Assembly (NCBI GenBank): GCA_016296065.1
Contig: JAEDKA010000003.1
Span: 5,093 to 69,092, forward strand
Direction: 5' to 3'
Source of the DNA: Kiritimatiellia bacterium
GTDB taxonomy: Bacteria > Verrucomicrobiota > Kiritimatiellia > RFP12 > UBA1067
Length of the DNA stretch: 64,000 nucleotides
Positions 24,476 through 64,000 of this stretch are shown here, piece by piece; position 1 is the stretch's first letter; each line of letters opens with the position of its first letter. Under the pieces are notes generated by a model. That model was not told the origin of the DNA. It searched no databases and saw nothing but the letters and a program-made list of their open reading frames with translations. Position numbers and translations under genes: made by a program.

Positions 24476-25675
24476 ATGAAAATGAACACAAAGAAGAATC
24501 ACAGCCACGTGTTTACGTCGGAGTCTGTTTCGGAAGGACATCCCGACAAGGTGGCGGACCAGATATCCGATGCAATCCTCGATGCGTGCATGAAGCGCGA
24601 CCCGAACGCCCATGTCGCGTGCGAAACAACGGTGGGGCCAGACATTGTAGTGAATGTCGGCGAAATCACCTGCAAAGACTTCAAGAAGATCGACATTGAA
24701 AAAATCGCCCGCCGCGTCGTCAGGAAGATCGGCTATACTGTGCCGGAAGAGAAATTCGCCGCCGACACGTTCAAATACCTCAACTACCTCCACGGACAGT
24801 CCCCAGACATCAACCAGGGCGTCTCTCGCGCGAAGAAGGAAAAGCAGGGGGCGGGAGACCAGGGGATGATGTTCGGCTACGCGACGAACGAGACGAAGTC
24901 CTACATGCCAGCCGCGATCGTCTATTCGCACGACCTCCTTAAGATGTTCGCGAAGCTCCGCAAGACGAACCCGAAGTACTCGTGGCTCCGCCCCGACTCG
25001 AAGAGCCAGCTCTCCGTCGTTTACGAAAACGGACGCCCCGTCGCGATAGACACCGTCGTCGTCTCGCATCAGACGACCGAGGATGGCGCGACTAAGAAGC
25101 ACTACGCCGAAATCGAAAATCTCGCGAAGGAATACCTTTCCAAGACCGGGCTCCTCACCACAAAGACGAAGTTCTTCATCAACCCGACGGGCAAGTTCGT
25201 CGTCGGCGGACCTTGCGGTGACTCCGGGCTCACCGGGCGCAAGATCATCGTCGACACGTATGGCGGAATGGCCGCGCACGGTGGCGGCGCATTCAGCGGA
25301 AAGGACCCCTCCAAGGTCGACCGCTCCGCCGCGTACTACGCGCGCTACGCCGCGAAGAACATCGTAGCCGCAGGCCTTGCGGACCGCTGCCAGATCCAGG
25401 TCGCCTACGCGATCGGCGTCGACAAGCCGGTCAGCTTCTGCGTCAAGACGTTCGATACCGCACACGGCGTGACGAACGAGCAGCTCGAGAAGATGCTAGC
25501 GTCCGGCAGGGTGTTCGACTTCCGCCCGTACGCGCTCATCAAGGACCTCGGGCTCCTCAAGCCGAAGGGCTGGAAATACGAGGACACGGCGGCCTACGGA
25601 CACTTCGGACGCTCCAAGTTCCCGTGGGAGAAGCTGGATAAGGTCGCAAAGATCAAAAGCTACCTCAAGGTTTGA
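24476..25675 (+). CDS. metK: S-adenosylmethionine synthetase
   Basis: [25 protein letters not shown] and [10 protein letters not shown] signatures. 399 aa. Confidence 0.95.
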
Positions 25676-52405: not shown

Positions 52406-53029
52406 TCACTTCGCCTGCCGCACAGCCAGCACCTCGGCGATGTACACGATGTGCAGATCGGCGGCCGAGGAGTACCACTTCTCGAACTGCGCGCGGTCAA
52501 TGAACGACGCCTCCGTCATCGGCTGGCGGTAGAGCGTCCGGCATTCGAGCACGAGGTTCGCTTCCTTGAACGTCGGCGGCTTCACCGCTTCCGACGCGAC
52601 GGGCGTGAGACCGGTGAGCGCCATCTTGTCGCAGTCGCGTCCGCTTTTCGTTCCGCAGACGGTCAGCGCCTTTCTGTATTTCTCGGGGAACGCCGAAAGC
52701 GTGAACTCCGCCCGTGCGTCGAGGAACTCGCGCGTGTACCGCGTCGGACGCACGACGACGGCGACGACTGGCCTGCCCCACATCGTCCCCGCGAATCCCC
52801 AGCTCACGGTCATCGTGTTCCACTTCGCGGAGAAGTCTCCGCCGGTCAGCAGAAACCAGCCCTTGTCAAACTGCGCGAACGGCCTCGCGACGAATTCGGA
52901 GGGCTCGACCCTGTTCATTTCGTTGTCCATTTTCTCTCCTTTTGTCTGTGCAAATATCCGCGGGGCGGCGAATGCCGCTGCACCCGCCACCGCCCCGGAC
53001 ATGAAATCCTTTCTCGACAGATTCTTCAT
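52406..53029 (-). CDS. flavin reductase-like (FMN-binding split barrel) protein with Tat-like signal
   Basis: NTMTVSWGFAGTMWGRPVVAVVVRPTRYTREF and VCGTKSGRDCDK. N-terminal MKNLSRKDFMSGAVAGAAAFAAPRIFAQ. An alternative start is at 52930. Confidence 0.65.
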   Translation of the reverse strand: MKNLSRKDFMSGAVAGAAAFAAPRIFAQTKGEKMDNEMNRVEPSEFVARPFAQFDKGWFLLTGGDFSAKWNTMTVSWGFAGTMWGRPVVAVVVRPTRYTREFLDARAEFTLSAFPEKYRKALTVCGTKSGRDCDKMALTGLTPVASEAVKPPTFKEANLVLECRTLYRQPMTEASFIDRAQFEKWYSSAADLHIVYIAEVLAVRQAK

Positions 53030-53538
53030 ATTGTCGCCACGAGTTCGGAGACGCTCTTGCGGGTTGAGTGCAGAGGCGAAGGCTTGGCTGCGGGATCGGC
53101 GTATCCGACAGGGAAGATCGCGACGAGATCGTAGCCGGCGAGTTCGGGGATGAGTTCCTGGAGCTTCGGCGCGTCGAAGTGTCCTACCCACGTCGTGGCG
53201 AGTCCCTGGTCCTCGATGGCGAGCATCATGTGGGTAGCCACTATCGTCGCGTCGACATCTGCGAAGTTGGCGTTGTCCGCAGGGCGCACCCACGCCTCCT
53301 CGCGCTTCGCCCCGACGATGAGGAACACTCCTGCGCCGAAGGTAAACGGCGTCACGTCGTGTATCGCCTTGAGCGCATCGGGCGACTTGGCGACCCAAAT
53401 CCTGAACGGCTGCTTGTTGACCGCCGTCGGCGCAAGTATGCCCGCCTCTATAATCGCGTCGAGCTTCTCCTGCTCCACGGGTTTCGCCGCCAGCTTGCGG
53501 CACGAGTAACGCTTCCTTGCCAAATCATTGAACGACAT
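53026..53538 (-). CDS. nitroreductase family protein
   Basis: RYSCRKLAAKPVEQEKLDAIIEAGILAPTAVNKQPF. AAGGAG SD upstream. Confidence 0.8.
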   Translation of the reverse strand: MSFNDLARKRYSCRKLAAKPVEQEKLDAIIEAGILAPTAVNKQPFRIWVAKSPDALKAIHDVTPFTFGAGVFLIVGAKREEAWVRPADNANFADVDATIVATHMMLAIEDQGLATTWVGHFDAPKLQELIPELAGYDLVAIFPVGYADPAAKPSPLHSTRKSVSELVATI

Positions 53539-53599
53539 TGTTTTTCTCCTTGTTTAGTTGTTTATTGAAACTGCTGTGACGTTTGTTTTAGATACTCAT

Positions 53600-53684
53600 A
53601 ATTCTGTTAATTCTGTCAATCATGTGTCTTAAAACCTCCCGTGCTTTTTTGTTTAGACACATCATTTACAGAATTTACAGAATT
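53600..53684. repeat. 85-bp palindromic element, copy 1
   Basis: AATTCTGTTAATTCTGTCAATCATGTGTCTTAAAAC...GTTTAGACACATCATTTACAGAATTTACAGAATT. It overlaps the 3' end of the GxxExxY ORF. Confidence 0.9.
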
Positions 53685-54074
53685 AAGACCTGTTGTGGTT
53701 TTGGGGCGATAGACGCGATATTTGTGCTTGCGCTCAAGCGATGCTGCACCGAAGTTGATAAGCAGCCCATCGTCTATTCCCGTTGCAGCAAGGTAATTGA
53801 CAAGCTGTGCCTCATGCGCAGCACACAAGGCAGAGACAGCCTTCAACTCAAGAATCATGCACTTCTCGACAATGATGTCTGCCCTGTAGTCGCCAACACG
53901 TACACCCTTGTATTCTACGGGAATCGGAACTTCCTTCTCGCATTCAAGGCCAAGCTCCTTCAATTCGATCATCAAGGCGTTCTTATACACCTCTTCTAGA
54001 TAGCCCGGCCCGAAATGCCTATGCACCGCCATTGCTGCGCCTGTTATCTTGTAGCGAAGTTCCTCAACATTCAT
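53616..54074 (-). CDS. GxxExxY protein (PD-(D/E)XK-like fold family)
   Basis: Start trimmed to MNVEELRYKITGAAMAVHRHFGPGYLEEVYKNAL, which contains GYLEEVY (GxxExxY). The last ~20 codons are encoded by repeat copy 1. Confidence 0.7.
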   Translation of the reverse strand: MNVEELRYKITGAAMAVHRHFGPGYLEEVYKNALMIELKELGLECEKEVPIPVEYKGVRVGDYRADIIVEKCMILELKAVSALCAAHEAQLVNYLAATGIDDGLLINFGAASLERKHKYRVYRPKTTTGLNSVNSVNDVSKQKSTGGFKTHD

Positions 54075-54426
54075 AATTCTGTTAATTCTGTTAATCATGT
54101 GTCTTAAAACCTTCCGCGCCTTTTTGTTTAGACACATCATTTACAGAATTTACAGAATTGAGTGGCTCGCGATTGAAATAGGCAACGGGCCTTTTGCATT
54201 CCGTTCTCCCGCGCGAATCTCCAGCTACTTTAATTCTGTTAATTCTGTTAATCATGTGTCTTAAAAACTTTCCGTGCTTTTTTGTTTAGACACATCATTT
54301 ACAGAATTTACAGAATTGATGGTCTCGCGATTGAAATAGGCAACGGGCCTTTTGCATTCCGCTCTCCAGTGCGAATCTCCAGCTACTTTAATTCTGTTAA
54401 TTCTGTTAATCATGTGTCTTAAAAAC
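54075..54426. repeat. tandem array: two full and one half copy of the 85-bp palindrome, each separated by a near-identical 72-bp segment
   Basis: Palindromes lie at 54075-54159, 54232-54317 and 54390-54426 (left arm only). The period is 157-158 bp. Confidence 0.9.
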
Positions 54427-54515
54427 TATTCGTAGTCGGTTTCCATCTTCTTCTCGATCTCGCTCTCAATCCGCCCCATGTTGTCGATGTTGTCGGACAT
54501 TGTCATCTCCTTATC

Positions 54516-56000
54516 TTATTTGTGTTCACTTGCCGACAGTGCGGCACGGCCTTTGTCCGTCAGTCGATACTTCTGAAGTTTGGAATGCTTAACTTCAGGC
54601 TTAGTCTGTTCAATAAAACCCGCCCTTAGCGTCGGACGAATATATCCCTCCCGGAAATAATTGCGGTCACGGATATGCAGTGCCTTCAGAAGTTCAGCCG
54701 TGCCAAGCTCCAAGTTCTTGAGAGCTTGCAGAAGCCTTTTCTGCTTTTCGTCAACTGGTGGGGTAACTGGTGGGGTAACTGGTGGGGTATCATGGTGGGT
54801 CGCGAGTGATGGCGAAGCATTCTTCGGCACTCCGTATGACGAGTTGTCGACGGCTGCGACGAGCTGTTCGTCTGTGAATCCATAGAGAAGATTCGGCAGT
54901 GTAACGCGAAAATAGTCGCTCTCGGACTCAAGGACAGGCATGCGTTTCCCAAGGTTGACCGACAGTTTCTCGTAGTCCTCGTTGAGCTTCTTGAACCCGC
55001 TGCCCTTGCGTTCCATGAGATCGAGCCGTTCAAACATATCCGCAAGGCACTTATTGCGGCGACGCGACGGAATCCGCCGAATGTTCGGATACTCCTGAAC
55101 CTTGCGGTCGCCCGGCATACCGCCTGGGGAGGTTATTTCCATCCGGTCGTCGAAGATATCAACATGGACTTCGCTACCTGTCTCAAGGTAGTCGCGGTGA
55201 ACGAGTCCGTTGATGAGCATCTCCTGAACAGAGCGTTCGGGATACTCGCGGAAGTTCACGCGGTCCGTCGGACGTTTGTGCCACGCGCGGCGTGAGTGAA
55301 GGCGAACGAAGTCCTCGGCGTATTTTAACAGCTGGAGAAGCCCGCCGCTGTACTCCTGGTCGTCGGCCGCATCCATTACGCCCGCAGTCATGTCGAGCCC
55401 GTTCCAGCGCGTGCAGAACACGCGAGAATGACGTATCGGCGATTCGTCAGCCAACAGCGCGCCGGTATTTGTCATCACGCCCGTCTCCGTGACGAGTCCG
55501 AATGATAGAAAATCCACCTTGCTCATCTTTGCGCCGTTCACCTTTTCATAGAGGTTCTTGAGCGCGATGAAAGTGAAGTCGGACGCCCGGTATCCGCCGA
55601 AGCAGGACACACAGTCCCATTCCTGCCCGGATCGCTCCATCAGGAACTGCGTCAATGCCGGCCCGGTCAACAACATCTTGACCGATCCCGTACGATAGTG
55701 GAAGCGCCCCTGATAGCTGACTGGGAAGGCGCTTGCTGCGACCTTGATCCGTATCACATCCTTGCCCTGCTTCTTGAGCAACGCGACGTCGGCCACGATG
55801 CCCATCGTGTTGCGGATGGAGTTGGGGATGTCCTCCATCAGCTTGTTAGCGTTCTTGACGCCGACGGGCTTCTTGGTTCCGTCCTCTATGCCGATGTAGA
55901 GCGTCCCGCCCTTGGCGTTCGCGTAGCCGCAGATCCACTCCAGGTACTTCTCGTGCCAGGACTCCTTGTACTCGACCGTCTGGTTCTCCTCGCGTTTCAT
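54516..56000 (-). CDS. AlbA_2 (Schlafen-like) DNA-binding / HATPase_c_4-type ATP-binding protein
   Basis: N-terminal EENQTVEYKESWHEKYLEWICGYANAKGGTLYIGIEDG is the AlbA_2 signature. TPPVTPPVTPPV linker and a C-terminal wHTH-like tail. Confidence 0.65.
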   Translation of the reverse strand: MKREENQTVEYKESWHEKYLEWICGYANAKGGTLYIGIEDGTKKPVGVKNANKLMEDIPNSIRNTMGIVADVALLKKQGKDVIRIKVAASAFPVSYQGRFHYRTGSVKMLLTGPALTQFLMERSGQEWDCVSCFGGYRASDFTFIALKNLYEKVNGAKMSKVDFLSFGLVTETGVMTNTGALLADESPIRHSRVFCTRWNGLDMTAGVMDAADDQEYSGGLLQLLKYAEDFVRLHSRRAWHKRPTDRVNFREYPERSVQEMLINGLVHRDYLETGSEVHVDIFDDRMEITSPGGMPGDRKVQEYPNIRRIPSRRRNKCLADMFERLDLMERKGSGFKKLNEDYEKLSVNLGKRMPVLESESDYFRVTLPNLLYGFTDEQLVAAVDNSSYGVPKNASPSLATHHDTPPVTPPVTPPVDEKQKRLLQALKNLELGTAELLKALHIRDRNYFREGYIRPTLRAGFIEQTKPEVKHSKLQKYRLTDKGRAALSASEHK

Positions 56001-56023
56001 TGCCTCTCTCCGCTCAAATTATT

Positions 56024-56239
56024 TCACTTAATCTCCAGAATATCGCGCGGCTTGCATTGAAAGAACTTGCAAATGCGATTGATGGTTTCTTCGCGAATCT
56101 TCTGACCCTTGTTCATCCTTGCGAGTGTAACAGTCGACAGCCCCACGGCAAGACGCATCTGCGTCTTTGTCATGTTGCGGTCTATCAGCATCTTCCAGAG
56201 TCGGTTGTAGCACATTTCTATACAATAAACCTTATCCAT
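56024..56239 (-). CDS. XRE-family helix-turn-helix regulator (71 aa)
   Basis: NRLWKMLIDRNMTKTQMRLAVGLSTVTLARMNKGQKI. Confidence 0.75.
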   Translation of the reverse strand: MDKVYCIEMCYNRLWKMLIDRNMTKTQMRLAVGLSTVTLARMNKGQKIREETINRICKFFQCKPRDILEIK

Positions 56240-56323
56240 TTTTTGACGAGTATTATATCATTTAGACCGAACTATCATCAAATATTATGTTTGTGTCGTG
56301 TAGATTTCAAAACCGGAAAAGTT

Positions 56324-57690
56324 GTAGCGAGCAAAACCGGAATGATTTTCATGCTCTCGCGGCGACCCAAGCTAATACAGCCGGGCTGTTTTGAAGGCCC
56401 GGCTGCCGCTTGGGCACCCCGCCGCGACACCTCTCCATTCAGTCACCGACTCCTGTACACCTTCGGATTGTTGGTGAACACCACCTTCGGCGACGTTCCC
56501 TTTTCCGGCTTGTTGAGCACGAGAGACACGGTTCCGTCAAGGTGCCGGCAGATCCACACGCGGGTTCCATTTGCGCATTCCGTCGAGCAGAGGAATCCGT
56601 CGACCAGCAACCGCCCGCGCGGCCCGATCGTCGAACCTTTCCATTCCGACCAGATCAGCTCCCACCATCCGTCCTGCGGGGGCTGACGCAGCTTGCACTG
56701 GCCCGACCTGATCTTGTCCGTCCAGACGTTCAGCGGCACGTCGTGAAGCTCACGGTGACGCTCGAACCCGTTGCGGTAGTCGACCAGGCAGTCCAGCTGT
56801 TCGTTTACCTCTTCAAGGGGAGTGTCTCCCGTAATGCCTTCCCTCGCCGCGTACGCCGGAAGCCTGTCCTGCCAGACCTGATGCACACGCTCGATCTTCC
56901 CCTTCGCCTCGGGCGTGTTCGCAAAGACGAAGGAGATGTCGACGAACTTCAGCCTCCTGCCGAGCTGGGTCAGCGACCCGTCGTCGTTCCTGAAGAAACC
57001 CGCCTTGTCCACGTAGATTTCCAGGGGGAGGCCGTATCTTGTGAAGGCTCTGTAGAACAAGTCCAGATACGACTCGACCGTCTCCCTCCGGTAGAGCCGG
57101 CAGCCGACCTGCATCCGGCTGCAGTCGTCAACCATGTCGATGAGCAGCAGAGCCTGGCAGGAGCGTCCGAGAAAGTAGTCGGGCGTCGCGTCCAGCTGCC
57201 ACAGCTCGCCGACCGACTTGCGCTGCCAGCGGCGGACGTGCGCCGGAGGCCGCGCCCTGTGGTCGGCCAGGTGGAGGTTGTGCGCAATGGCCCAGTGCCG
57301 GACCTGGGAGCGCTCTACGGGGAAGCCGAAGCGCCTCCCGACCTCGCTGGCGACAAACGCATACGAATACCGTTTCGCGTCGCCATCCGGCTCCAGTGCC
57401 CTGCGCAGGAACGACTGCACCTTGTCAGGCCACGCCGGCATGTGGTTGCCGCCGGACGAACCAGGCTCCCAGTCGTCGCCGAGCCCCTGAGCCCGTGCCG
57501 CGAGGTAGGACGTGCGCAGCGAATACAGCTGCGACTGCCCGACCTGAAGCGACTCCATCGCCTGCTGGCGGGTGATCGCTCCGGTTACGAACTGCATCAT
57601 CGTGTCTCGGACATGCGCGACACCCAGTCGGTTTGATATTTGCTGTTTCATGGAGCATAGTATACTCCACATTCCGGTTTTGCTCGCTAC
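56324..57690 (-). mobile_element. insertion sequence (1367 bp) with perfect 21-bp terminal inverted repeats and one DDE (rve) transposase
   Basis: GTAGCGAGCAAAACCGGAATG at 56324-56344 and its reverse complement at 57670-57690. I saw no clear target-site duplication. Confidence 0.75.
56443..57651 (-). CDS. DDE-type (rve integrase core) transposase
   Basis: WQLDATP, YVDKAGFF and KGKIER form the DDE triad context. Start trimmed to MKQQISN, 7 nt after a TATACT -10. Confidence 0.75.
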   Translation of the reverse strand: MKQQISNRLGVAHVRDTMMQFVTGAITRQQAMESLQVGQSQLYSLRTSYLAARAQGLGDDWEPGSSGGNHMPAWPDKVQSFLRRALEPDGDAKRYSYAFVASEVGRRFGFPVERSQVRHWAIAHNLHLADHRARPPAHVRRWQRKSVGELWQLDATPDYFLGRSCQALLLIDMVDDCSRMQVGCRLYRRETVESYLDLFYRAFTRYGLPLEIYVDKAGFFRNDDGSLTQLGRRLKFVDISFVFANTPEAKGKIERVHQVWQDRLPAYAAREGITGDTPLEEVNEQLDCLVDYRNGFERHRELHDVPLNVWTDKIRSGQCKLRQPPQDGWWELIWSEWKGSTIGPRGRLLVDGFLCSTECANGTRVWICRHLDGTVSLVLNKPEKGTSPKVVFTNNPKVYRSR

Positions 57691-57800
57691 ACCGAGACGG
57701 CCGCCCCCCATGGGGGGCGTATGGTTTTCTTAACTTTCAACAATCGCCATCTTTGAAGCAAAATCCCTCGCTGAAGCCCGCTTAACAGGCTCTCTCGCTC

Positions 57801-57821
57801 CATTCCGGTTTTGCTCGCTAC
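57801..57821. repeat. extra solo copy of the IS right-end 21-mer
   Basis: CATTCCGGTTTTGCTCGCTAC is identical to 57670-57690 and in the same orientation. A degenerate fourth copy follows at 57824-57838. Confidence 0.85.
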
Positions 57822-57981
57822 AGCATTCCGCTTTTGCTTTCACCGCGACATCGCGCAAAGCGGCGACATGGACAACGTAGTCGATATTTTCCTCAAAGAG
57901 CCGCGGCAGCCGTGCGGCTTGAGCCAGTCGAGGTAGTCTTCAATCAATTCGTCGAGCGTGGCTCGGGCGACAAGAGTGGTC

Positions 57982-58596
57982 TCATACCTGGAAGAACAGT
58001 CCGTAGATTATGAATAGCACAAACACGATTGAGCAGATCAGCGCGAAACAACAGCCACGAAGGTCGTCTTCAGGACCGCGGCTCTCCCAATGTCCGCCCT
58101 GGGGTTGCCTCGCTCCGCCTCGGCTGGACGCACAAGCGTACGGGTAGTCGTCGTGTCCGTAATCGTCGTCAGCGCCGTAGTCCTCGTCATCTTCGTCGTC
58201 GTCCGAATCGTAGTCGTCGTCATCCCGCGAGCTGCCGAAGTTGTAGTCGCCGTCGGGCATCTCGCCGGAGTAGTACCTGTTGCGCTTCTTCAGCATCATC
58301 AAGGCGCCGTACTCGGATCCATCGCCGTCCCCGAACGAGTCCCCACGCGACATGCCGGTGCTTTCGTACGTCGGACCGATGAAGTTGCTTCCGTGCGCTT
58401 CGCCGACATAGTTGTGGTCGATGTCCCACAGCTTTCCGGAGGCGTCTATACGGCCCTGCCTGACGCCGCCATTGTCGTAGATGTCGTCCCCCTCGATCCG
58501 GCCGACATACTGGTGGTTTTCGTCATAGAGGCGGCCATCGTCGTCGATGCTCCCCTCGAAGTCGCTCATCCCGCGGAACAGATTTCTCTCGCTCAT
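57982..58596 (-). CDS. hypothetical tail-anchored protein with G-x-I/Y-D repeats and poly-acidic region (204 aa)
   Basis: Start trimmed to MSERNLF with a strong SD (AGGAGGAAAACAAAATG). C-terminal TM CCFALICSIVFVLFIIYGLFF. Confidence 0.6.
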   Translation of the reverse strand: MSERNLFRGMSDFEGSIDDDGRLYDENHQYVGRIEGDDIYDNGGVRQGRIDASGKLWDIDHNYVGEAHGSNFIGPTYESTGMSRGDSFGDGDGSEYGALMMLKKRNRYYSGEMPDGDYNFGSSRDDDDYDSDDDEDDEDYGADDDYGHDDYPYACASSRGGARQPQGGHWESRGPEDDLRGCCFALICSIVFVLFIIYGLFFQV

Positions 58597-58822
58597 TTTG
58601 TTTTCCTCCTGTTGTTTTCGTTGGCATAGAGGCCACCTGGAGCCGCAGAAACGCTGTCGCCCGTCTCTGCGCGGGACGGGCGACCTTCGGAACTTGTTTT
58701 CCCAAAAGGGCCCATCCTTTTTCCACCGCGGCGTTCCCGCTCGGTTGGCAGATGCGCTCCCGCACATCACTCTTGATGGTCTCAACACCGTATATTATAT
58801 CATATTGCTAATTCAGCCACAA
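58597..58822 (-). promoter_or_regulatory. sigma70-type promoter plus ~190-nt structured leader (copy A)
   Basis: TTGTGG (58817-58822), 17-nt spacer, TATAAT (58794-58799). P1 hairpin at 58751-58768 and terminator-like hairpin at 58656-58684. It is a near-duplicate of 61025-61254. Confidence 0.6.
58643..58684 (-). terminator. leader terminator-like hairpin, copy A (weak U tract)
   Basis: GUCGCCCGUC-9 nt-GACGGGCGAC followed by AGCGUUUCUG. Confidence 0.45.
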
Positions 58823-58889
58823 GGGGGTTCGCGAAATTTTTTCCCGCTCATGATGCTTATTTCCTCCGTTCCCAAGGTGAATCGCCTTG

Positions 58890-60335
58890 TCATGGTCCCA
58901 TCACATAAAAGCCATCAAAACATCTATCAGAGGCATCGCACTGCTCTATAAGCCACCATACGAAGAAATCAAGAAGTGCCAAAATCCGAAAACGGTTCTT
59001 CGACAACATTTCTCGCTTCGCTATTTCCATCTTCTCTTTATCCTCGTCCAAGGCAACTCTTTCACCGCTTGGGGATTCCCAGGCAAAGTCTGAATTTAGC
59101 AGCCTTTGCGAAATCTTGCCTAGAGCTGGATCGCAAGGATCTTTGATAATCTGCAACCGAACGACCTTGATTCGATCCAAAATCAGCCCGGCTTCCTCTT
59201 TACGGAAGTGGAATTTCTCGTAATAGTATTCGTAATAGTATGGAACAACGCTCTCGAAGATGGCAAGCAAAGGTTCTATCTTTTCTGCGTACATCAGAAA
59301 GACAGATCCGGTCTTCCATGCATCCCATCCCAAATTATCATCATCGTAAGCGTAAATCGCAAACTCTCTAGAACATCTCCCCGGATGACGCCCATAGATC
59401 ATGCCGAGATTCAACTTCTTCAACCTGCGCGAAATCCTGTAGCTGTCAACGAATCTATCGGCCGGGTTTCGCAAATCACCGCGCGTGCCAAACTTCTCGT
59501 CATAATACTGGCGCGAACGAGCCTCCGACTCCTCCCCCACACCCAATTTCCCGACGCCCCGTATCGCATGATAAAGGCTCATTCTGTGCAACAACTCAAG
59601 TTTGACCGCTCCATCCTCGATCCACCCCATGTACTGCGCCGACTTGCCAGGTCCTTCGACAACAAACCTGATCTTGTAGCGGACAGCCTTGCTTTCAACG
59701 ATAAAACATCCGTTCGCGCAATACAAGACCTCATCTCCCGAAAGAGCCGACCGCAAGACTTTATCAACAGTTTCCACCGCATCGGCAATGGATCCTCTCA
59801 ATATCATAATTGCGGTGTCAATTGTCGCATCATAATGGAAACATTCCCCCAAGCTGAAATACTTAGCCCATGCACAGCACTGACCGGGGGAAAGTGCTCG
59901 CCTCTTCCAAAGTGCAATCCTCAAACGCTGATGCGCAAGCCGAGCCAATACGAACCTTACGCGCTCGTCTTTGCTTATCTTCGTTGAACACCCCATCTCA
60001 GCGTCAAACAACTTCAGTCCATCATTCCCAAGGCATGTTTCAATCGCGAGGCACCTTGCAAGTACGTCCGCAACAAGCTGAGCATTTATGTATTCTGCCG
60101 TTACAGACACTAGAGGCAATCCAGGCTCTTGGCGAAATCTGAAGATAGGCTTCGATTTCGCAGATTCGCAAGACGAGGGGCGAAGCATCTTTGTCAGTCC
60201 GTCTAAATCAAACGGCGAGAAATCCTCTCGACAAATGTCAAGCGTCCCGCTTTCAACGTATGCACGAAGCGACCTTGAAATCATCACGTCAAAGCCAGGG
60301 AATCTCGGCTTACATATGTAGAATCGATAGCGCAT
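58890..60335 (-). CDS. hypothetical protein (481 aa), no recognisable domain
   Basis: AT-richer ORF. ATG 60335 is preceded by GGAG-ATAATC. The TTG at 60347 in the track is less likely. Confidence 0.6.
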   Translation of the reverse strand: MRYRFYICKPRFPGFDVMISRSLRAYVESGTLDICREDFSPFDLDGLTKMLRPSSCESAKSKPIFRFRQEPGLPLVSVTAEYINAQLVADVLARCLAIETCLGNDGLKLFDAEMGCSTKISKDERVRFVLARLAHQRLRIALWKRRALSPGQCCAWAKYFSLGECFHYDATIDTAIMILRGSIADAVETVDKVLRSALSGDEVLYCANGCFIVESKAVRYKIRFVVEGPGKSAQYMGWIEDGAVKLELLHRMSLYHAIRGVGKLGVGEESEARSRQYYDEKFGTRGDLRNPADRFVDSYRISRRLKKLNLGMIYGRHPGRCSREFAIYAYDDDNLGWDAWKTGSVFLMYAEKIEPLLAIFESVVPYYYEYYYEKFHFRKEEAGLILDRIKVVRLQIIKDPCDPALGKISQRLLNSDFAWESPSGERVALDEDKEKMEIAKREMLSKNRFRILALLDFFVWWLIEQCDASDRCFDGFYVMGP

Positions 60336-60359
60336 GATTATCTCCAACTGCCACTTGAA

Positions 60360-60590
60360 TTACATCAACACCTCGCCAGGCATCTTCAGATACCACACCT
60401 GCGTCTTGTACACGACGACCGTCATAGGCCCCGCCTTGATCGTCACAAAACCGTCCGAGTCGGGCTTAACGTACCCGATTTGAGAGTACTGCTGCCCGCC
60501 CGGCGTCTTGCAGAACGTCATCCAGTAGTCCGCCTTCGCAATGAGCGTTGCGGCAACCACCAATCCCGCAACCATAAGTTTTCTGATCAT
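60360..60590 (-). CDS. small secreted hypothetical protein (76 aa)
   Basis: Start trimmed to MIRKLMVAGLVVAATLIAKA (signal peptide), with an AGGAG SD. Confidence 0.5.
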   Translation of the reverse strand: MIRKLMVAGLVVAATLIAKADYWMTFCKTPGGQQYSQIGYVKPDSDGFVTIKAGPMTVVVYKTQVWYLKMPGEVLM

Positions 60591-60625
60591 GACACTCCTT
60601 TCCCGCTTTCTCTTAGCCGATTCGC

Positions 60626-61024
60626 TTACCGAGCTGTATCGCAATCGTCGTCGCAGAAATCCCAGTTCTTCAGGATGAACTGGCATTCCGGATCGCCATC
60701 CCGAAAATCAAGCACGGCAGGATGGTTGAAGTTCGCCACATAGCACTCCCCTTCTGACGATGCACCTCTGACGACATGGCAATAGTCGCCCATCTTCCCA
60801 AGCGCAAGGTCTTTGCCCGGCGGCAGGAGTCCTAGGGCATGGAAGAGCTCGTTGCATGTCTCTACGACAAGCCGCTCGTCCGTCTCGATCGGAATGCTGA
60901 CAAGGTATGCAAACGGATTCTCGCCGTCGTTGCAGAGGCTGGCACCCTCAATTTCGCTATTTCCGACGACGTCGCCGACGACATAGTCAATGTATTCATG
61001 CGCCTTAGGTGTTAGTTCCCTCAT
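60626..61024 (-). CDS. acidic Cys-containing hypothetical protein (132 aa)
   Basis: Start trimmed to MRELTPKAHEYI with SD AAAGGAGTAAGACTATG. It is the first gene after leader copy B. Confidence 0.55.
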   Translation of the reverse strand: MRELTPKAHEYIDYVVGDVVGNSEIEGASLCNDGENPFAYLVSIPIETDERLVVETCNELFHALGLLPPGKDLALGKMGDYCHVVRGASSEGECYVANFNHPAVLDFRDGDPECQFILKNWDFCDDDCDTAR

Positions 61025-61254
61025 AGTCTTACTCCTTTCGTTTTTGGTTTTCTGTTGTAACCGCCAAGAGCCTCCGCAAAAAACGATGTCGCCCGTCTCT
61101 GCGCGGGACGGGCGACCTTCGGAACTTGTTTTCCCCAAAGGGCCCATCCCTTTTCCACCGTGGCGTTCCCGCTCGGTTGGCAGATGCGCTCCCGCGCATC
61201 ACTCTTCATGGTCTTGATGGTGAATATTATATCATATTGCTGATTCAGCCGCAA
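61025..61254 (-). promoter_or_regulatory. sigma70-type promoter plus ~190-nt structured leader with intrinsic terminator (copy B)
   Basis: TTGCGG (61249-61254), 17-nt spacer, TATAAT (61226-61231). P1 hairpin GAUGCGC-GGGA-GCGCAUC at 61183-61200. Terminator at 61078-61116. Confidence 0.65.
61078..61116 (-). terminator. intrinsic terminator inside leader copy B
   Basis: 10-bp perfect stem GUCGCCCGUC / GACGGGCGAC (61088-61116), then AUCGUUUUUUG. Confidence 0.65.
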
Positions 61255-61292
61255 GGGGGTTCGGGAAATTATTTGCGGGCGCGCCGGGGTAT

Positions 61293-61323
61293 GGTTTAGA
61301 CAGGTTAGACAAGATTTACAGGG
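61293..61323. repeat. half-copy of the 9-mer-arm palindromic element family
   Basis: GGTTTAGACAGGTTAGACAAGATTTACAGGG resembles the right arm GTTTAGACACATCATTTACAGAATTTACAG. Confidence 0.55.
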
Positions 61324-61548
61324 CCGTGGCTCAAGAGGGACGGACTCTGACCCGTCCGCAATAGGGAGGACCGCGCTTGTCGCGGCCGTCATGAGGACGC
61401 GGAGGGAGCGCAGCGAGCGCAGTGTCCGAACAGCCACGCTCGCTCCAATCCTAACCACATGTCTACCCTCCGCAGTGAATCAAAATCGCTGTCGGACAGA
61501 AGAAGTCATGCACGTTGAACAGTCGCTGTATTCCTCACAGATTGTCAC

Positions 61549-64000
61549 TCACGAAAACTCAGCACGTGAGAATCCGAGATTGTTGCAGTTTTCGCTAACT
61601 GTGCGGACGACAATCGGAGTAAATGGATTTACGTTTTTTGCCTCAATCGACAACGTGACCTTTACATTGGCACCTGAAGCTGAAAGATGGGAAATAACTT
61701 CATCCACGATTTCTCCGATTCTTGATGATCCATGCGAAACATCAACGCGAGCTTCACCGATAAACTTTCGCTTTGCAGCCGTCGGCAATGATGCAGGCTT
61801 GCCCCCTGGGCCGATTCCTTGCCCTTGTCCACCATTGATTGCGTCTCCAGAGCCACCTGCGAGGTTGCCGGGGCCATCATCGATGACATCATCTGAAGTT
61901 ATATCGCCCGTTAACGATGCTTTATATTCAGCTGCTTCCTTGTCTCTGACAATCAGCTCATTGTCAGAGACGCCTATTGCCATTGGGTTATCCCCAAACG
62001 CAAATACCGAATAACAGCCATCCTCCCCTTTGTCGCGGGCATAGCCAAACAAACCAGAAGCAACGCCCTGTCTTACTGTCTCGCAAAACGCCGCTGCCGA
62101 AACAAGTCTGCTGAAGTACAGGTACGAGGCCATATCCTGCCATATCTTGCGCGTCGACACTTCATGGCATCCATTCTTGAAGTAATATTGCGCAAGATCG
62201 GATTTCATGAAACGTGGCGCCCAAACCCGCAAAATGTCTTCGTTATCTTCCAATGTCTTGCAAACAGCGTCGCCAAGAAGTGACACACTTGCCACATTCA
62301 TCTTTCGGACGACAAATCCGATATCATTCCCCGCCTGCTCGGGCACCAACAGATATTTGAAGCACTCGCAGATCAAACCCCTCAGCATTGTATCGCTCTG
62401 CGCGATAAAGGCCTGTACCTGGGCATCCTCCTGCTTGGTGACATTGATTGACCCGCCCATTATAGCATCCCTCACTGCGCGCCACGCAAGCAGCGTGCGG
62501 CATTGATCTTCAATGCGTCCGACCATGCTCAAATCGGCCGCCAAAAAGACAAGTCTGTTTTTCCTCATACGCGCGACCGTTCCGCATTTGTTGACATATA
62601 CTCGTGCAGCATCAAACGTATGGCTCTCCGTCGCCTTCGAATACGACGAGACCAACGGGAGCACCACAACACGTACGCCTTCCACAATGTCATCAGGCAC
62701 TTCACCATCATCTGCAAACACATGCAACCCAGCGATACAGCTGGGCGAACCCCACTTGTTCTTCAGAGCCATCTCGAGGGCTTCTCTGACATCTTTCTGC
62801 TTGATGCGCCCCTTATACTCATTCATTGTCCTAGATAAATTAGGACGTGTATCATACCAGTAGCGGTCGTCGCTGGAGAACAGATATTGCAGTCTCTCGC
62901 GCATCTTGTGAAGTGCATCCTCGTAGAATGAAAGTTCCTGCCCGGGAATGGCACACCCAAGAAGTATCTGCTTACGGGCTATGCCTCTAACAGTCTGCTC
63001 GGCGGTGGACGCAGCACTTCCAATGAAAATCGTCCGTGCAACTCGAACCGCCGCATGAAGCGCCCCAAGATGTGGATCGCTGACGTCAATTCGAACTGGC
63101 TGTGACTCCACGCCGTCAATTTCTCTATCAATGATAACGCCCCATCCATTCGGGAGAAACTGCGTGGACTTGTTCGCTACCGCCGTGTCGCACAGCGGAA
63201 TCGACGCTGGCATGATCAGCGGTTCATCGCTACCTGTCTTCCACTGGCTGTTGATCACGATCGCCATGTACTGCAACACGCCGCGCGTCTTCTGGAAGTT
63301 TGGCAAAGTCGACCAGTCCTCGTAAAGACGAATAAACACCTCTGGATGGATAGGATAGCACTGCCGCATTCTATCCGTCCAGATTCCCTCCTGGATATAA
63401 GGAGGCAGCGAGTCCCGTTTTTCGTGATAGTAGGATGCAAATTCCTGACAGGTTTCCTCTACAGCCGCAGTATCTTCAATCTTCTCGAAAAGACGGCGTT
63501 TTACGATTTCAAAGCCCTCTTCTGCCGTGACAGGCCTCCATATCGCATTGACGCGACCGAATGTTTTTTCCAAAGTCACAAGCGCCGTGCGCCCGAATGT
63601 ACCGGCAGCCTCCGTGTCAGAACTCGGAAGCGATACGAGCATCATTGCCTGTGGCGCGCTCTTCACAGCCTCTGTCAAGGCCTGCGCAAAAGATATATTG
63701 CTTTCATACGTCCCGCCTGCCAAAGCGCCGCCAGATCCGAACTGGCGATAATACGACACAAGTTCGTCCATCAAGACAACACAAGGCCCTGCATCTTTCA
63801 AAAGTGACTCCAAAATCCCCTTCCCCGGCGAGGTTCCCGCTGCATCGCTGTCCGCAACCTTTGCGTATCCTTCAGGCCCAAGGAGCTGCCATGCCAGGTT
63901 TCCCCAAAGCGTTCTTATTGAAAGTCCGCCTTGCTTCAATGGCTGGTTGGGCGCCAGAGCATTGCCGTCTATTACCGCCACTCTCGCGTGCGGGACACTC
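61549..64000 (-). CDS. DUF499-type (BrxC/PglY-like) ATPase, 5' end outside the window
   Basis: The ORF is open to the right edge, with no stop upstream of the listed GTG at 63981. GPCVVLMDELVSYY is Walker-B-like. LWGNLAWQLLGPEGYAKV and the overall length fit my recollection of DUF499. Confidence 0.55.
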   Translation of the reverse strand, partial: SVPHARVAVIDGNALAPNQPLKQGGLSIRTLWGNLAWQLLGPEGYAKVADSDAAGTSPGKGILESLLKDAGPCVVLMDELVSYYRQFGSGGALAGGTYESNISFAQALTEAVKSAPQAMMLVSLPSSDTEAAGTFGRTALVTLEKTFGRVNAIWRPVTAEEGFEIVKRRLFEKIEDTAAVEETCQEFASYYHEKRDSLPPYIQEGIWTDRMRQCYPIHPEVFIRLYEDWSTLPNFQKTRGVLQYMAIVINSQWKTGSDEPLIMPASIPLCDTAVANKSTQFLPNGWGVIIDREIDGVESQPVRIDVSDPHLGALHAAVRVARTIFIGSAASTAEQTVRGIARKQILLGCAIPGQELSFYEDALHKMRERLQYLFSSDDRYWYDTRPNLSRTMNEYKGRIKQKDVREALEMALKNKWGSPSCIAGLHVFADDGEVPDDIVEGVRVVVLPLVSSYSKATESHTFDAARVYVNKCGTVARMRKNRLVFLAADLSMVGRIEDQCRTLLAWRAVRDAIMGGSINVTKQEDAQVQAFIAQSDTMLRGLICECFKYLLVPEQAGNDIGFVVRKMNVASVSLLGDAVCKTLEDNEDILRVWAPRFMKSDLAQYYFKNGCHEVSTRKIWQDMASYLYFSRLVSAAAFCETVRQGVASGLFGYARDKGEDGCYSVFAFGDNPMAIGVSDNELIVRDKEAAEYKASLTGDITSDDVIDDGPGNLAGGSGDAINGGQGQGIGPGGKPASLPTAAKRKFIGEARVDVSHGSSRIGEIVDEVISHLSASGANVKVTLSIEAKNVNPFTPIVVRTVSENCNNLGFSRAEFS

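Follow-up and report, generated by a model that had tools for sequence, protein, structure and literature searches.

Two SAM-I/IV riboswitch leaders head a probably mobile accessory gene cassette in a defence island of a Kiritimatiellia bacterium

What controls four orphan genes that stand next to a defence operon, and does their control tell what they serve? The question is raised by one end of a 64,000-nucleotide (nt) stretch of contig JAEDKA010000003.1 (assembly GCA_016296065.1, positions 5,093 to 69,092 of the forward strand) from a Kiritimatiellia bacterium. This whole stretch is called the window, its positions are used throughout, and its genome is referred to as G000. A reading made from the sequence alone had pointed to four minus-strand open reading frames (ORFs) at 57982-61024, driven by two leaders regarded as plain promoters, and had proposed a defence or toxin-immunity module. 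All four ORFs are present, with lengths of 132, 76, 481 and 204 amino acids (aa). Their proteins are named P1 to P4, and the terms helix P1, helix P2 and helix P3 are kept for the helices of the RNA aptamer. The leaders proved to be more than promoters: they are riboswitches of the S-adenosylmethionine (SAM) class SAM-I/IV (Rfam family RF01725), and this is the most informative feature of the locus. We regard it as reasonably probable that the locus is a 3.6-kb mobile, SAM-repressed accessory cassette of two units, a satellite of a mobile low-SAM regulon in a gut Victivallales lineage.

The two leaders and their predicted mode of control

The Rfam scan covered positions 53000-64000 and was then repeated on the whole window. 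Judged by sequence, both leaders are SAM-I/IV riboswitches, as each matched the full length of the RF01725 model above its gathering score, the curated Rfam cut-off of 41.1 bits. They were also scored with R1, a covariance model trained on the copies of this leader found in the genus. The features of the cassette are as follows, in the order of transcription.

61226-61254, minus strand: predicted promoter of unit B, with the -35 element TTGCGG (61254-61249), a 17-nt spacer and a TG-extended -10 element TATAAT (61231-61226)
61117-61216, minus strand: SAM-I/IV aptamer, copy B (RF01725 49.9 bits, E 6.1e-6, model positions 1-99 of 99; R1 83.4 bits)
61074-61116, minus strand: expression platform B, a 10-bp GC-rich hairpin at 61088-61116 (inverted repeat I7) followed by AUCGUUUUUUGCGG
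60626-61024, minus strand: ORF of P1, 132 aa, acidic, with invariant N58, H62, C82, Y95, N100, H101 and D111
60360-60590, minus strand: ORF of P2, 76 aa, with a signal-like N-terminus (MIRKLMVAGLVVAATLIAKA, then DYW); signal peptide judged by eye
58890-60335, minus strand: ORF of P3, 481 aa, beginning at the ATG that is also the start in its relatives
58794-58822, minus strand: predicted promoter of unit A, within the 194-nt repeat, with the -35 element TTGTGG (58822-58817), a 17-nt spacer and a TG-extended -10 element TATAAT (58799-58794)
58685-58784, minus strand: SAM-I/IV aptamer, copy A (RF01725 50.4 bits, E 4.9e-6, model positions 1-99 of 99; R1 85.4 bits)
58643-58684, minus strand: expression platform A, the same hairpin at 58656-58684 followed by AGCGUUUCUGCGG, a U-run weaker than that of copy B
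57982-58596, minus strand: ORF of P4, 204 aa, with beta-flower-like repeats at about residues 15-75, an acidic Asp/Tyr tract and a C-terminal membrane anchor

The genes form two units. Unit B consists of P1, P2 and P3 with intergenic gaps of 35 and 24 nt, and unit A is P4 alone behind the second leader. The leaders themselves are a 194-nt direct repeat (58649-58842 and 61081-61274) and are 91% identical.

The structure of the RNA was examined in 28 leaders, namely 23 from the genus and a related genome, four linked to metK and one other. For this, the leaders were aligned with MAFFT, which does not fit the alignment to a structure, and the pairs were counted on the structure carried over from the Rfam alignment with the pseudoknot added. 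The proportion of cells able to pair was 82.7%, compared with 35-42% when the 3' partners were slid by 1-3 columns. Changes on both sides were found in 20 of the 30 pairs, including all eight pairs of the helix that holds helix P2 and all five pseudoknot pairs (GGAAC/GUUCC). At most one of 500 shuffles reached any of the five pairing measures. Thus, helices P1, P2 and P3, the 3' hairpin and the loop-tail pseudoknot are all kept by covariation. Meanwhile, 17 alignment columns were invariant in all 28 leaders, and since these are common to the four metK-linked copies, the ligand core is the ordinary, unchanged one. The stem of helix P2 runs without interruption up to a loop of four bases and has no internal loop. 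This agrees with the SAM-I/IV variant as described by Weinberg et al. (2010, PMC2864571), whose helix P2 lacks the internal loop of SAM-I and SAM-IV.

The aptamers are followed directly by a hairpin and a U-run. In the unconstrained fold, the terminator's 5' arm, GCCCGUCC, is base-paired to the 3' strand of helix P1, GGAUGGGC, and when the aptamer was enforced in folding, the terminator hairpin formed instead. The two alternative pairings together make up a predicted terminator/antiterminator platform of an off switch. It should be noted that our terminator scan missed both leader hairpins (the loop of platform B has 9 nt and lies outside the scan thresholds), and that the consensus promoter scan left the leader promoters unflagged, that of unit B because its -35 element matches at only 3 of 6 positions. 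The same motif, TTGTGG or TTGCGG with a 17-nt spacer before TATAAT, also precedes the third riboswitch described below and a NUDIX-ADP-ribosylglycohydrolase (ARH) gene pair elsewhere in the island.

Each unit would therefore begin with one and the same module, in which a strong promoter of the sigma-70 type is followed by the SAM-I/IV aptamer and then by an intrinsic terminator. Binding of SAM would close helix P1, the GC-rich hairpin and the U-run would form, and transcription would end ahead of the coding part. At low SAM, helix P1 would instead give up its 3' strand to the 5' arm of the terminator, allowing read-through into P1-P2-P3 and into P4. Since the SAM-bound switch is proposed to terminate ahead of the genes, P1 to P4 would be made only at low SAM. 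We are confident that the leaders are such SAM-gated transcriptional off switches, with SAM binding and the direction of control predicted from the RNA class and the platform.

The composition of the cassette agrees with the description in the sequence-only reading. The GC content is 0.45-0.54 over 58750-61000 and 0.60-0.69 in the core; by gene, it is 0.48 for P3, 0.54 for the P1 frame and 0.59 for the P4 frame, and core genes have 0.56-0.69. That reading had also set strong Shine-Dalgarno sites in the cassette against their lack in the core genes. GGAG-type sites were found at all four genes (AAGGAG for P1 and P2, TGGAGA for P3, AGGAGG for P4), and a 4-mer Shine-Dalgarno-like word was also seen in 11 of the 33 long ORFs of 1-53000, a rough count based on imprecise longest-ORF starts. 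Because one third of the long core ORFs show such a word, the contrast is real but not absolute. Several long ORFs of 1-53000 have a TATAAT-like word at most 20 nt before their uncurated start codon and no Shine-Dalgarno word, and leaderless mRNAs may be common in this organism.

Contigs of other studies span P3-P2-P1-leader B (run X2, record 16, 59736-61166), P3-P2 (run X13, record 7, 59246-60476) and P4-leader A-P3 (run X8, record 27, 58580-59600). Since they bridge the junctions of the cassette, the gene order is not an assembly artefact.

Distribution of the switch and mobility of the cassette

Two sets of genomes were searched, 117 genomes of the genus and 41 genomes of relatives. RF01725 was found in nine of the 41, and outside this family but within the order, the RNA precedes metK in four genomes (loci L005, L007, L010 and L011) that belong to other families. 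Within the genus, it was present at E≤0.01 in 15 of the 117 genomes (9/117 above the cut-off) at 22 places, with four copies in G115, three in G052 and two each in G043 and G000. The search with R1 added a second copy in G100, a second in G107 and a third in the window's own genome. In G107, the copies are arranged in tandem within one operon, a design shared with the window cassette, in the order switch, genes, switch, MoxR and a fragment of the MetK N-terminal domain.

The genes behind the genus copies mostly have no Pfam family, and apart from MetK paralogues, the Pfam scan of these genes revealed no family of methionine or SAM biosynthesis or transport. ADP-ribosylglycohydrolase operons follow the switch in G100 and G118, and MoxR AAA+ ATPases follow it in G130 and G107. 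The commonest family behind the genus switches carries the N-terminal motif NP.W...Y.NAP..AK (loci L008, L030, L034, L035, L039, L042 and L046) and matched nothing in Pfam or PADLOC; its member in L008 is followed by a DnaJ-like protein. The surroundings of the genus copies hold type I and type ISP restriction-modification systems, a Lamassu-like LmuB ATPase, AlbA_2 regulators, HigB and Phd/YefM.

In the window's own genome, RF01725 at E≤0.001 detected only the two window copies and missed the third, which lies on contig C73.

C73:89011-89120, same strand as the window copies, 28 kb away from them: third switch copy (R1 80.6 bits), with the same promoter motif

This third switch heads a nine-gene operon (C73:80791-89120; loci L047:11792-19844 and L059:1855-3121) that encodes, in order, a small protein, a DnaJ-like protein, a HIRAN protein, a 257-aa protein, a Sel1 protein, a MoxR AAA_5 ATPase, a 141-aa protein, an HExxH/VWA protein of 467 aa and, at its end, a divergent MetK paralogue of 387 aa. 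Neither RF01725 nor R1 found such a switch at the canonical metK of the genome (window 24476-25675). Directly upstream of the third switch and adjoining it, the motif TTGTGG-17-TGnTATAAT stands without a riboswitch before a NUDIX gene (291 aa) and an ADP-ribosylglycohydrolase gene (277 aa) (L059:3190-5043, C73:89189-91042); close relatives of the latter stand behind the switch in G100 and G118.

The cassette itself was sought in public sequencing runs. At least half of the sampled words of 57950-61300 were present in 17 DNA runs (20 holder entries from 13 studies, mostly cattle and pig gut metagenomes). Three DNA runs were compared with 57000-62000, and their contigs cover 57850-61430 at 90-99% likeness, bridging all internal junctions. 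At 61428-61434 and 57860-57909, the metagenome contigs depart from the window sequence into different flanks. Run X20 was rejected as evidence of expression, since its RNA type was only guessed and its contigs covered small parts.

Among the genomes, P4 was found in 3/117 and P2 in 8/117 of the genus set and P3 in 2/41 of the relatives. Their arrangements differ. In G115, the order is leader-P1-P2-P4, with neither P3 nor a second leader; in G055, P2-P4 stand behind a different first gene and without a switch; in G003, P3 and a fusion protein with the P1 domain lie about 3 kb apart, again without a switch. A P4-like protein in G003 was rejected as not significant (BLASTP E 0.06). Because the arrangements vary around P2-P4, this pair is regarded as the conserved core, and an operon of P1-P2-P4 seems to have gained P3, which has the lowest GC content (0.48), by insertion together with the duplicated leader. 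The patchy occurrence, the GC content and the varying flanks bear out the earlier proposal of an accessory, horizontally moved module in a defence or mobilome island, and the cassette is very probably a mobile accessory unit. The defence or toxin-immunity part of that proposal found no family match.

The neighbourhood is a defence island of about 35 kb, and the neighbours named in the sequence-only reading were all recovered, DUF499 upstream and an rve insertion sequence (IS), HTH_26 (XRE type), AlbA_2/HATPase_c_4 and PDDEXK_3 (the GxxExxY gene) downstream in the Pfam annotation. The following features lie outside the cassette or at its edges.

61549-63999, minus strand: HmaC (DUF499 ATPase, PF04465), PADLOC HmaC 915.5 bits, the last gene of an Hma-type defence operon, outside the cassette
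61365-61434, no strand assigned: repeat of 70 nt on the upstream side of the cassette, at its edge, with further copies of 94-96% identity on contigs C59 and C48
56290-57850, minus strand: IS element with the rve transposase at 56443-57711 (28.1 bits, below the cut-off) and inverted ends I5/I6, abutting the downstream edge of the cassette

The island reaches from about position 53540 of the window to ligA on C73 and holds HmaB (PADLOC 1464 bits) and HmaC as well as AlbA_2 regulator, MoxR-VWA, HIRAN, NUDIX and ARH genes. Within this extent, three SAM-gated units stand beside the Hma system. A second copy of the IS is present on contig C104 (99.9% over 1561 nt). The inverted repeat of the left IS end occurs twice (57670-57691 and 57801-57822), both times 100% identical and inside the 1561-nt copy shared with C104. 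The direct repeat 57784-57806/61429-61451 was rejected as a pair of att-like sites, as its left copy lies inside the IS duplicated on C104. Around and behind the PDDEXK_3 gene (53596-54421), there are three copies of a 92-nt palindromic repeat and a 158-nt tandem duplication. These repeats are AT-rich, are built on TTAATTCTGT words and gave spurious microRNA-like Rfam matches.

The four cassette proteins

The families of the proteins were sought in Pfam, NCBIfam, PADLOC (the 2023 version of the PADLOC 2.0 library) and PHROGs. P1, P2 and P3 gave no match, P4 gave only a weak repeat match in PHROGs, and none of the four matched a defence-system model in PADLOC at E≤1.

P3, in which the sequence-only reading had recognised no motif, has a nucleotidyltransferase fold in its predicted structure. 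The AlphaFold model (pLDDT, the predicted local distance difference test score, 88.7; pTM, the predicted template modelling score, 0.85) consists of an N-terminal ferredoxin-like domain (1-118), a Pol-beta-type nucleotidyltransferase core (124-309) with the N-terminal spine helix of the CD-NTases, and a helical C-terminal part. In a Foldseek search with this model, CD-NTases came out on top at E of about 1e-4, with whole-chain template modelling scores of only 0.17-0.25. No CD-NTase profile matched P3 in PADLOC (E≤1), Pfam (E≤0.01) or NCBIfam (E≤0.1), and a profile search of the PDB with the P3 family returned only unrelated chance entries (E 0.26-3.8) and no CD-NTase. The best score in the ESM Atlas was 0.77, below the level of a usable lead, and BFVD gave no match at E≤0.001.

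Close relatives of P3 number 25, and the name of one assigns it to a Victivallales metagenome-assembled genome; a profile search of the family against 1.84 billion representatives gave 155 proteins at E≤0.001. Among 58 relatives scanned of 150 listed, 53 had no Pfam match, two were AlbA_2 fusions and three had weak or repeat-type matches. P0208 and P0224 are distant relatives of the P3 core (profile positions of about 166-295) fused to a Schlafen/AlbA_2 domain, and many further relatives of the core are stand-alone proteins of 165-200 aa that cover the core only.

In 35 P3 sequences reaching down to 17% identity, Y3, D111, E227, R251, R294 and W461 were invariant and E202 nearly so; G181 was invariant in the close family only. 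E202 and E227 lie on core strands, and D111 is in the N-terminal ferredoxin-like domain. The catalytic motif of CD-NTases is G[GS]...[DE]h[DE]h...h[DE]h. Read without residue-level superposition, P3 showed no DxD-type pair on its core strands and no GS...DxD...D motif. Because the canonical motif was not found, P3 may be an enzyme whose active site is unusual and perhaps composite, or else an NF90-like ligand-binding pseudo-enzyme. P3 is placed in the cytoplasm and in a new family whose core is CD-NTase-like, and it is probably an enzyme or a ligand sensor. A Cap effector operon was not found, as no neighbour of P3 in the cassette matched a PADLOC model. Relatives of either protein, P3 or P4, can be found in the absence of the other.

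P4 was compared with Bflower_2 (PF21785). Its residues 15-75 scored 31.3 bits (E 1.9e-7; cut-off 38), and of the 68 relatives of P4, 64 have PF21785 in their precomputed annotation. The G-x-(I/L)-(Y/W)-D repeats, the poly-Asp tract and the hydrophobic C-terminal end described earlier, as well as the secretion-like start of P2, are all visible in the translations. P4 would thus be a tail-anchored beta-flower membrane protein, with the anchor read from the translation.

P2 appears to be a small exported protein, the signal being read by eye, and its relatives stand next to P4 relatives in G115 and G055. In G100 (L050:9244-10542), the gene of a P2 relative is placed between a radical-SAM gene, which it follows immediately, and a copy of the switch, which comes next. 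In run X13, the summed depth over the P2 region (60340-60673) is far above that of its neighbours, and contigs end loosely at 60373 and 60539. The context in G100 and the depth in X13 suggest that the P2-type small domain, predicted to be exported, occurs in many other contexts. P1 has 12 relatives, in which the seven residues given above are invariant; it is a small acidic protein with a His/Cys motif, and its model (pLDDT 82) gave generic similarities only.

Explanations for the cassette and comparison with known systems

In the reading that we prefer, the same switch would head varying orphan gene sets in defence islands and so build up a low-SAM regulon, which in the window's own genome would also take in the MoxR/VWA/MetK-paralogue operon 28 kb away. 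Several results weigh against it. As no known defence, toxin or metabolic family was matched, the role of P1 to P4 is read from context. The switch is not tied to the cassette genes elsewhere: a linkage to P3 was rejected, since RF01725 was found at none of the 15 other P3 loci at E≤0.1 and R1 gave a single chance-level match there (14.5 bits, E 0.96), and the P2-P4 pair in G055 had no R1 match either. P3 may have no catalytic activity, since the canonical G[GS]...[DE]h[DE]h motif was not found in it. Leader A has a weak U-run (UUUCU). Folding energies, which ignore the pseudoknot and the ligand, favour the unconstrained structure of the leaders over the aptamer state by 11-18 kcal/mol; because of this, the switch must work kinetically, like others of its kind. 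No RNA run was among the listed holders of the cassette stretch. Finally, the conserved linkage to DUF499 that the sequence-only reading had suggested as a check did not hold: positions 61509-62000 (HmaC) were uncovered in the three DNA runs, a contig result in which loose ends show other flanks and which does not prove absence. Other metagenomes contain the cassette away from Hma, which speaks against a functional link between the two.

A role of the cassette in conflict with phages or mobile elements, triggered by the loss of SAM, is a tentative possibility. It is suggested by the consistent position of the switches in defence islands, by SAM-dependent systems nearby (Hma here, type I in G100, type ISP in G115), and by the CD-NTase-like fold, the ADP-ribose enzymes and the MetK paralogue among the gated genes. 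On the other hand, P1 to P4 match no defence family, the cassette is found without Hma elsewhere, and restriction systems are common in any island. A more specific version, which we consider unlikely, takes the SAM level as an infection signal, with the riboswitch guarding an immune cofactor and releasing second-line genes. Phages would degrade SAM or inhibit its synthetase and so disarm defences that rely on methylation, among them the Hma, type I and type ISP systems next to the switches. The loss of SAM would then release the terminators, and a protected MetK paralogue with a MoxR/VWA helper would be made together with effector cassettes such as P1-P2-P3/P4, in which P3, with its CD-NTase-like core, would produce or perceive a nucleotide signal and P4, anchored in the membrane, would have the envelope as its target.

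To our knowledge, the SAM riboswitches described so far regulate sulfur, methionine or SAM metabolism and transport. This precedent, the metK genes that follow the same RNA in the four genomes from other families and the MetK paralogue at the end of the third-switch operon would favour an unrecognised role of the cassette in methionine or SAM metabolism, such as uptake, salvage or nucleotidyl transfer. P2 would then be exported to bind a substrate, P4 would belong to the membrane part, P3 would be the enzyme, and the riboswitch would serve in its usual role. Nevertheless, no transporter or enzyme family was recognised in P1 to P4 and no methionine or SAM gene is linked to them; the genes are as rare as counted above, have a low GC content and an IS at their edge, and P3, P2 and P4 all have relatives that lack the switch, so that such a role is improbable. 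Another explanation is selfish cargo of a mobile element, for example anti-defence or establishment genes, with the acidic P1 and the Asp-rich P4 as decoys and the switch reading host physiology. The varying flanks in several animal gut metagenomes, the modular build of leader plus genes, the strong acidity of P1 and P4 and the IS and 70-nt repeat at the edges would suit it. The unit, however, contains no integrase, relaxase, capsid or other mobility gene, only the weak PHROGs repeat match of P4 was found and no known anti-restriction family in the Pfam and PADLOC scans, and the surrounding 35 kb are a chromosomal island of host defence genes; we regard this explanation as quite improbable.

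The signal-like N-terminus of P2, the membrane anchor of P4, the adjacency of the two in G115 and G055 and the HigB and Phd/YefM toxin-antitoxin genes near other switch copies could also be read as a toxin-immunity or secreted-effector module, in which P2 would be an exported toxin or signal and P4 or P1 would give immunity. This is very unlikely, as no toxin, bacteriocin or immunity family was matched, no secretion or processing genes were found in the window, and P2 would keep only about 55 residues after export, with no recognisable motif. It is still more difficult to regard the aptamers as relics or binders of another ligand, with the leaders acting as constitutive promoters or attenuators. 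The gene context is indeed atypical for a SAM riboswitch and the U-run of leader A is weak, but both copies exceed the Rfam cut-off over the full model, their core columns are those of the metK-linked copies, and the helices and the pseudoknot covary. The copies are also 91% identical including the terminator, and one difference between them changes a U-G pair to a C-G pair. Such an explanation is therefore extremely improbable.

The preferred reading, a mobile SAM-repressed cassette within a low-SAM regulon, joins a known class of RNA to an apparently new use, a multi-copy portable control module for orphan defence-island genes that brings its own promoter and terminator. Our full-text literature search, which did not extend to subscription journals, found no description of natural SAM riboswitches gating defence-island genes. 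P3 adds an unnamed family of nucleotidyltransferase fold with 155 representative sequences. Proteins of no recognised function and a MetK-paralogue operon would be tied to one physiological cue, low SAM, and are thereby made testable; the question is raised whether the depletion of a cofactor by phages could be sensed directly by an RNA.

Compared with the CD-NTases of cyclic oligonucleotide-based antiphage signalling systems (DncV, CdnB, CdnE and CdnG) and with the cGAS/OAS/NF90 branch of the Pol-beta nucleotidyltransferases, P3 differs in having no sequence-level profile match. It also differs in its extra N-terminal ferredoxin-like domain, in its conserved acids (D111, E202 and E227) and in the lack of a recognised linked Cap effector. 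P4 resembles the 5-fold beta-flower proteins (PF21785) in residues 15-75 and through the annotation of 64/68 relatives, and it differs from them in its sub-cut-off score, its Asp/Tyr-rich tract and its C-terminal membrane anchor. The leaders agree with SAM-I/IV RNAs (RF01725; PMC2864571) in the full-length match, helices P1-P2-P3, the 3' hairpin, the loop-tail pseudoknot and the uninterrupted helix P2. The core nucleotides of the window copies are those of the metK-linked copies in related genomes. Most genus copies carry an extra hairpin between helices P3 and P1, which the two window copies lack. Unlike the known representatives, the genus copies head orphan defence-island genes instead of methionine or SAM genes, occur in several copies per genome and move with the cassette.

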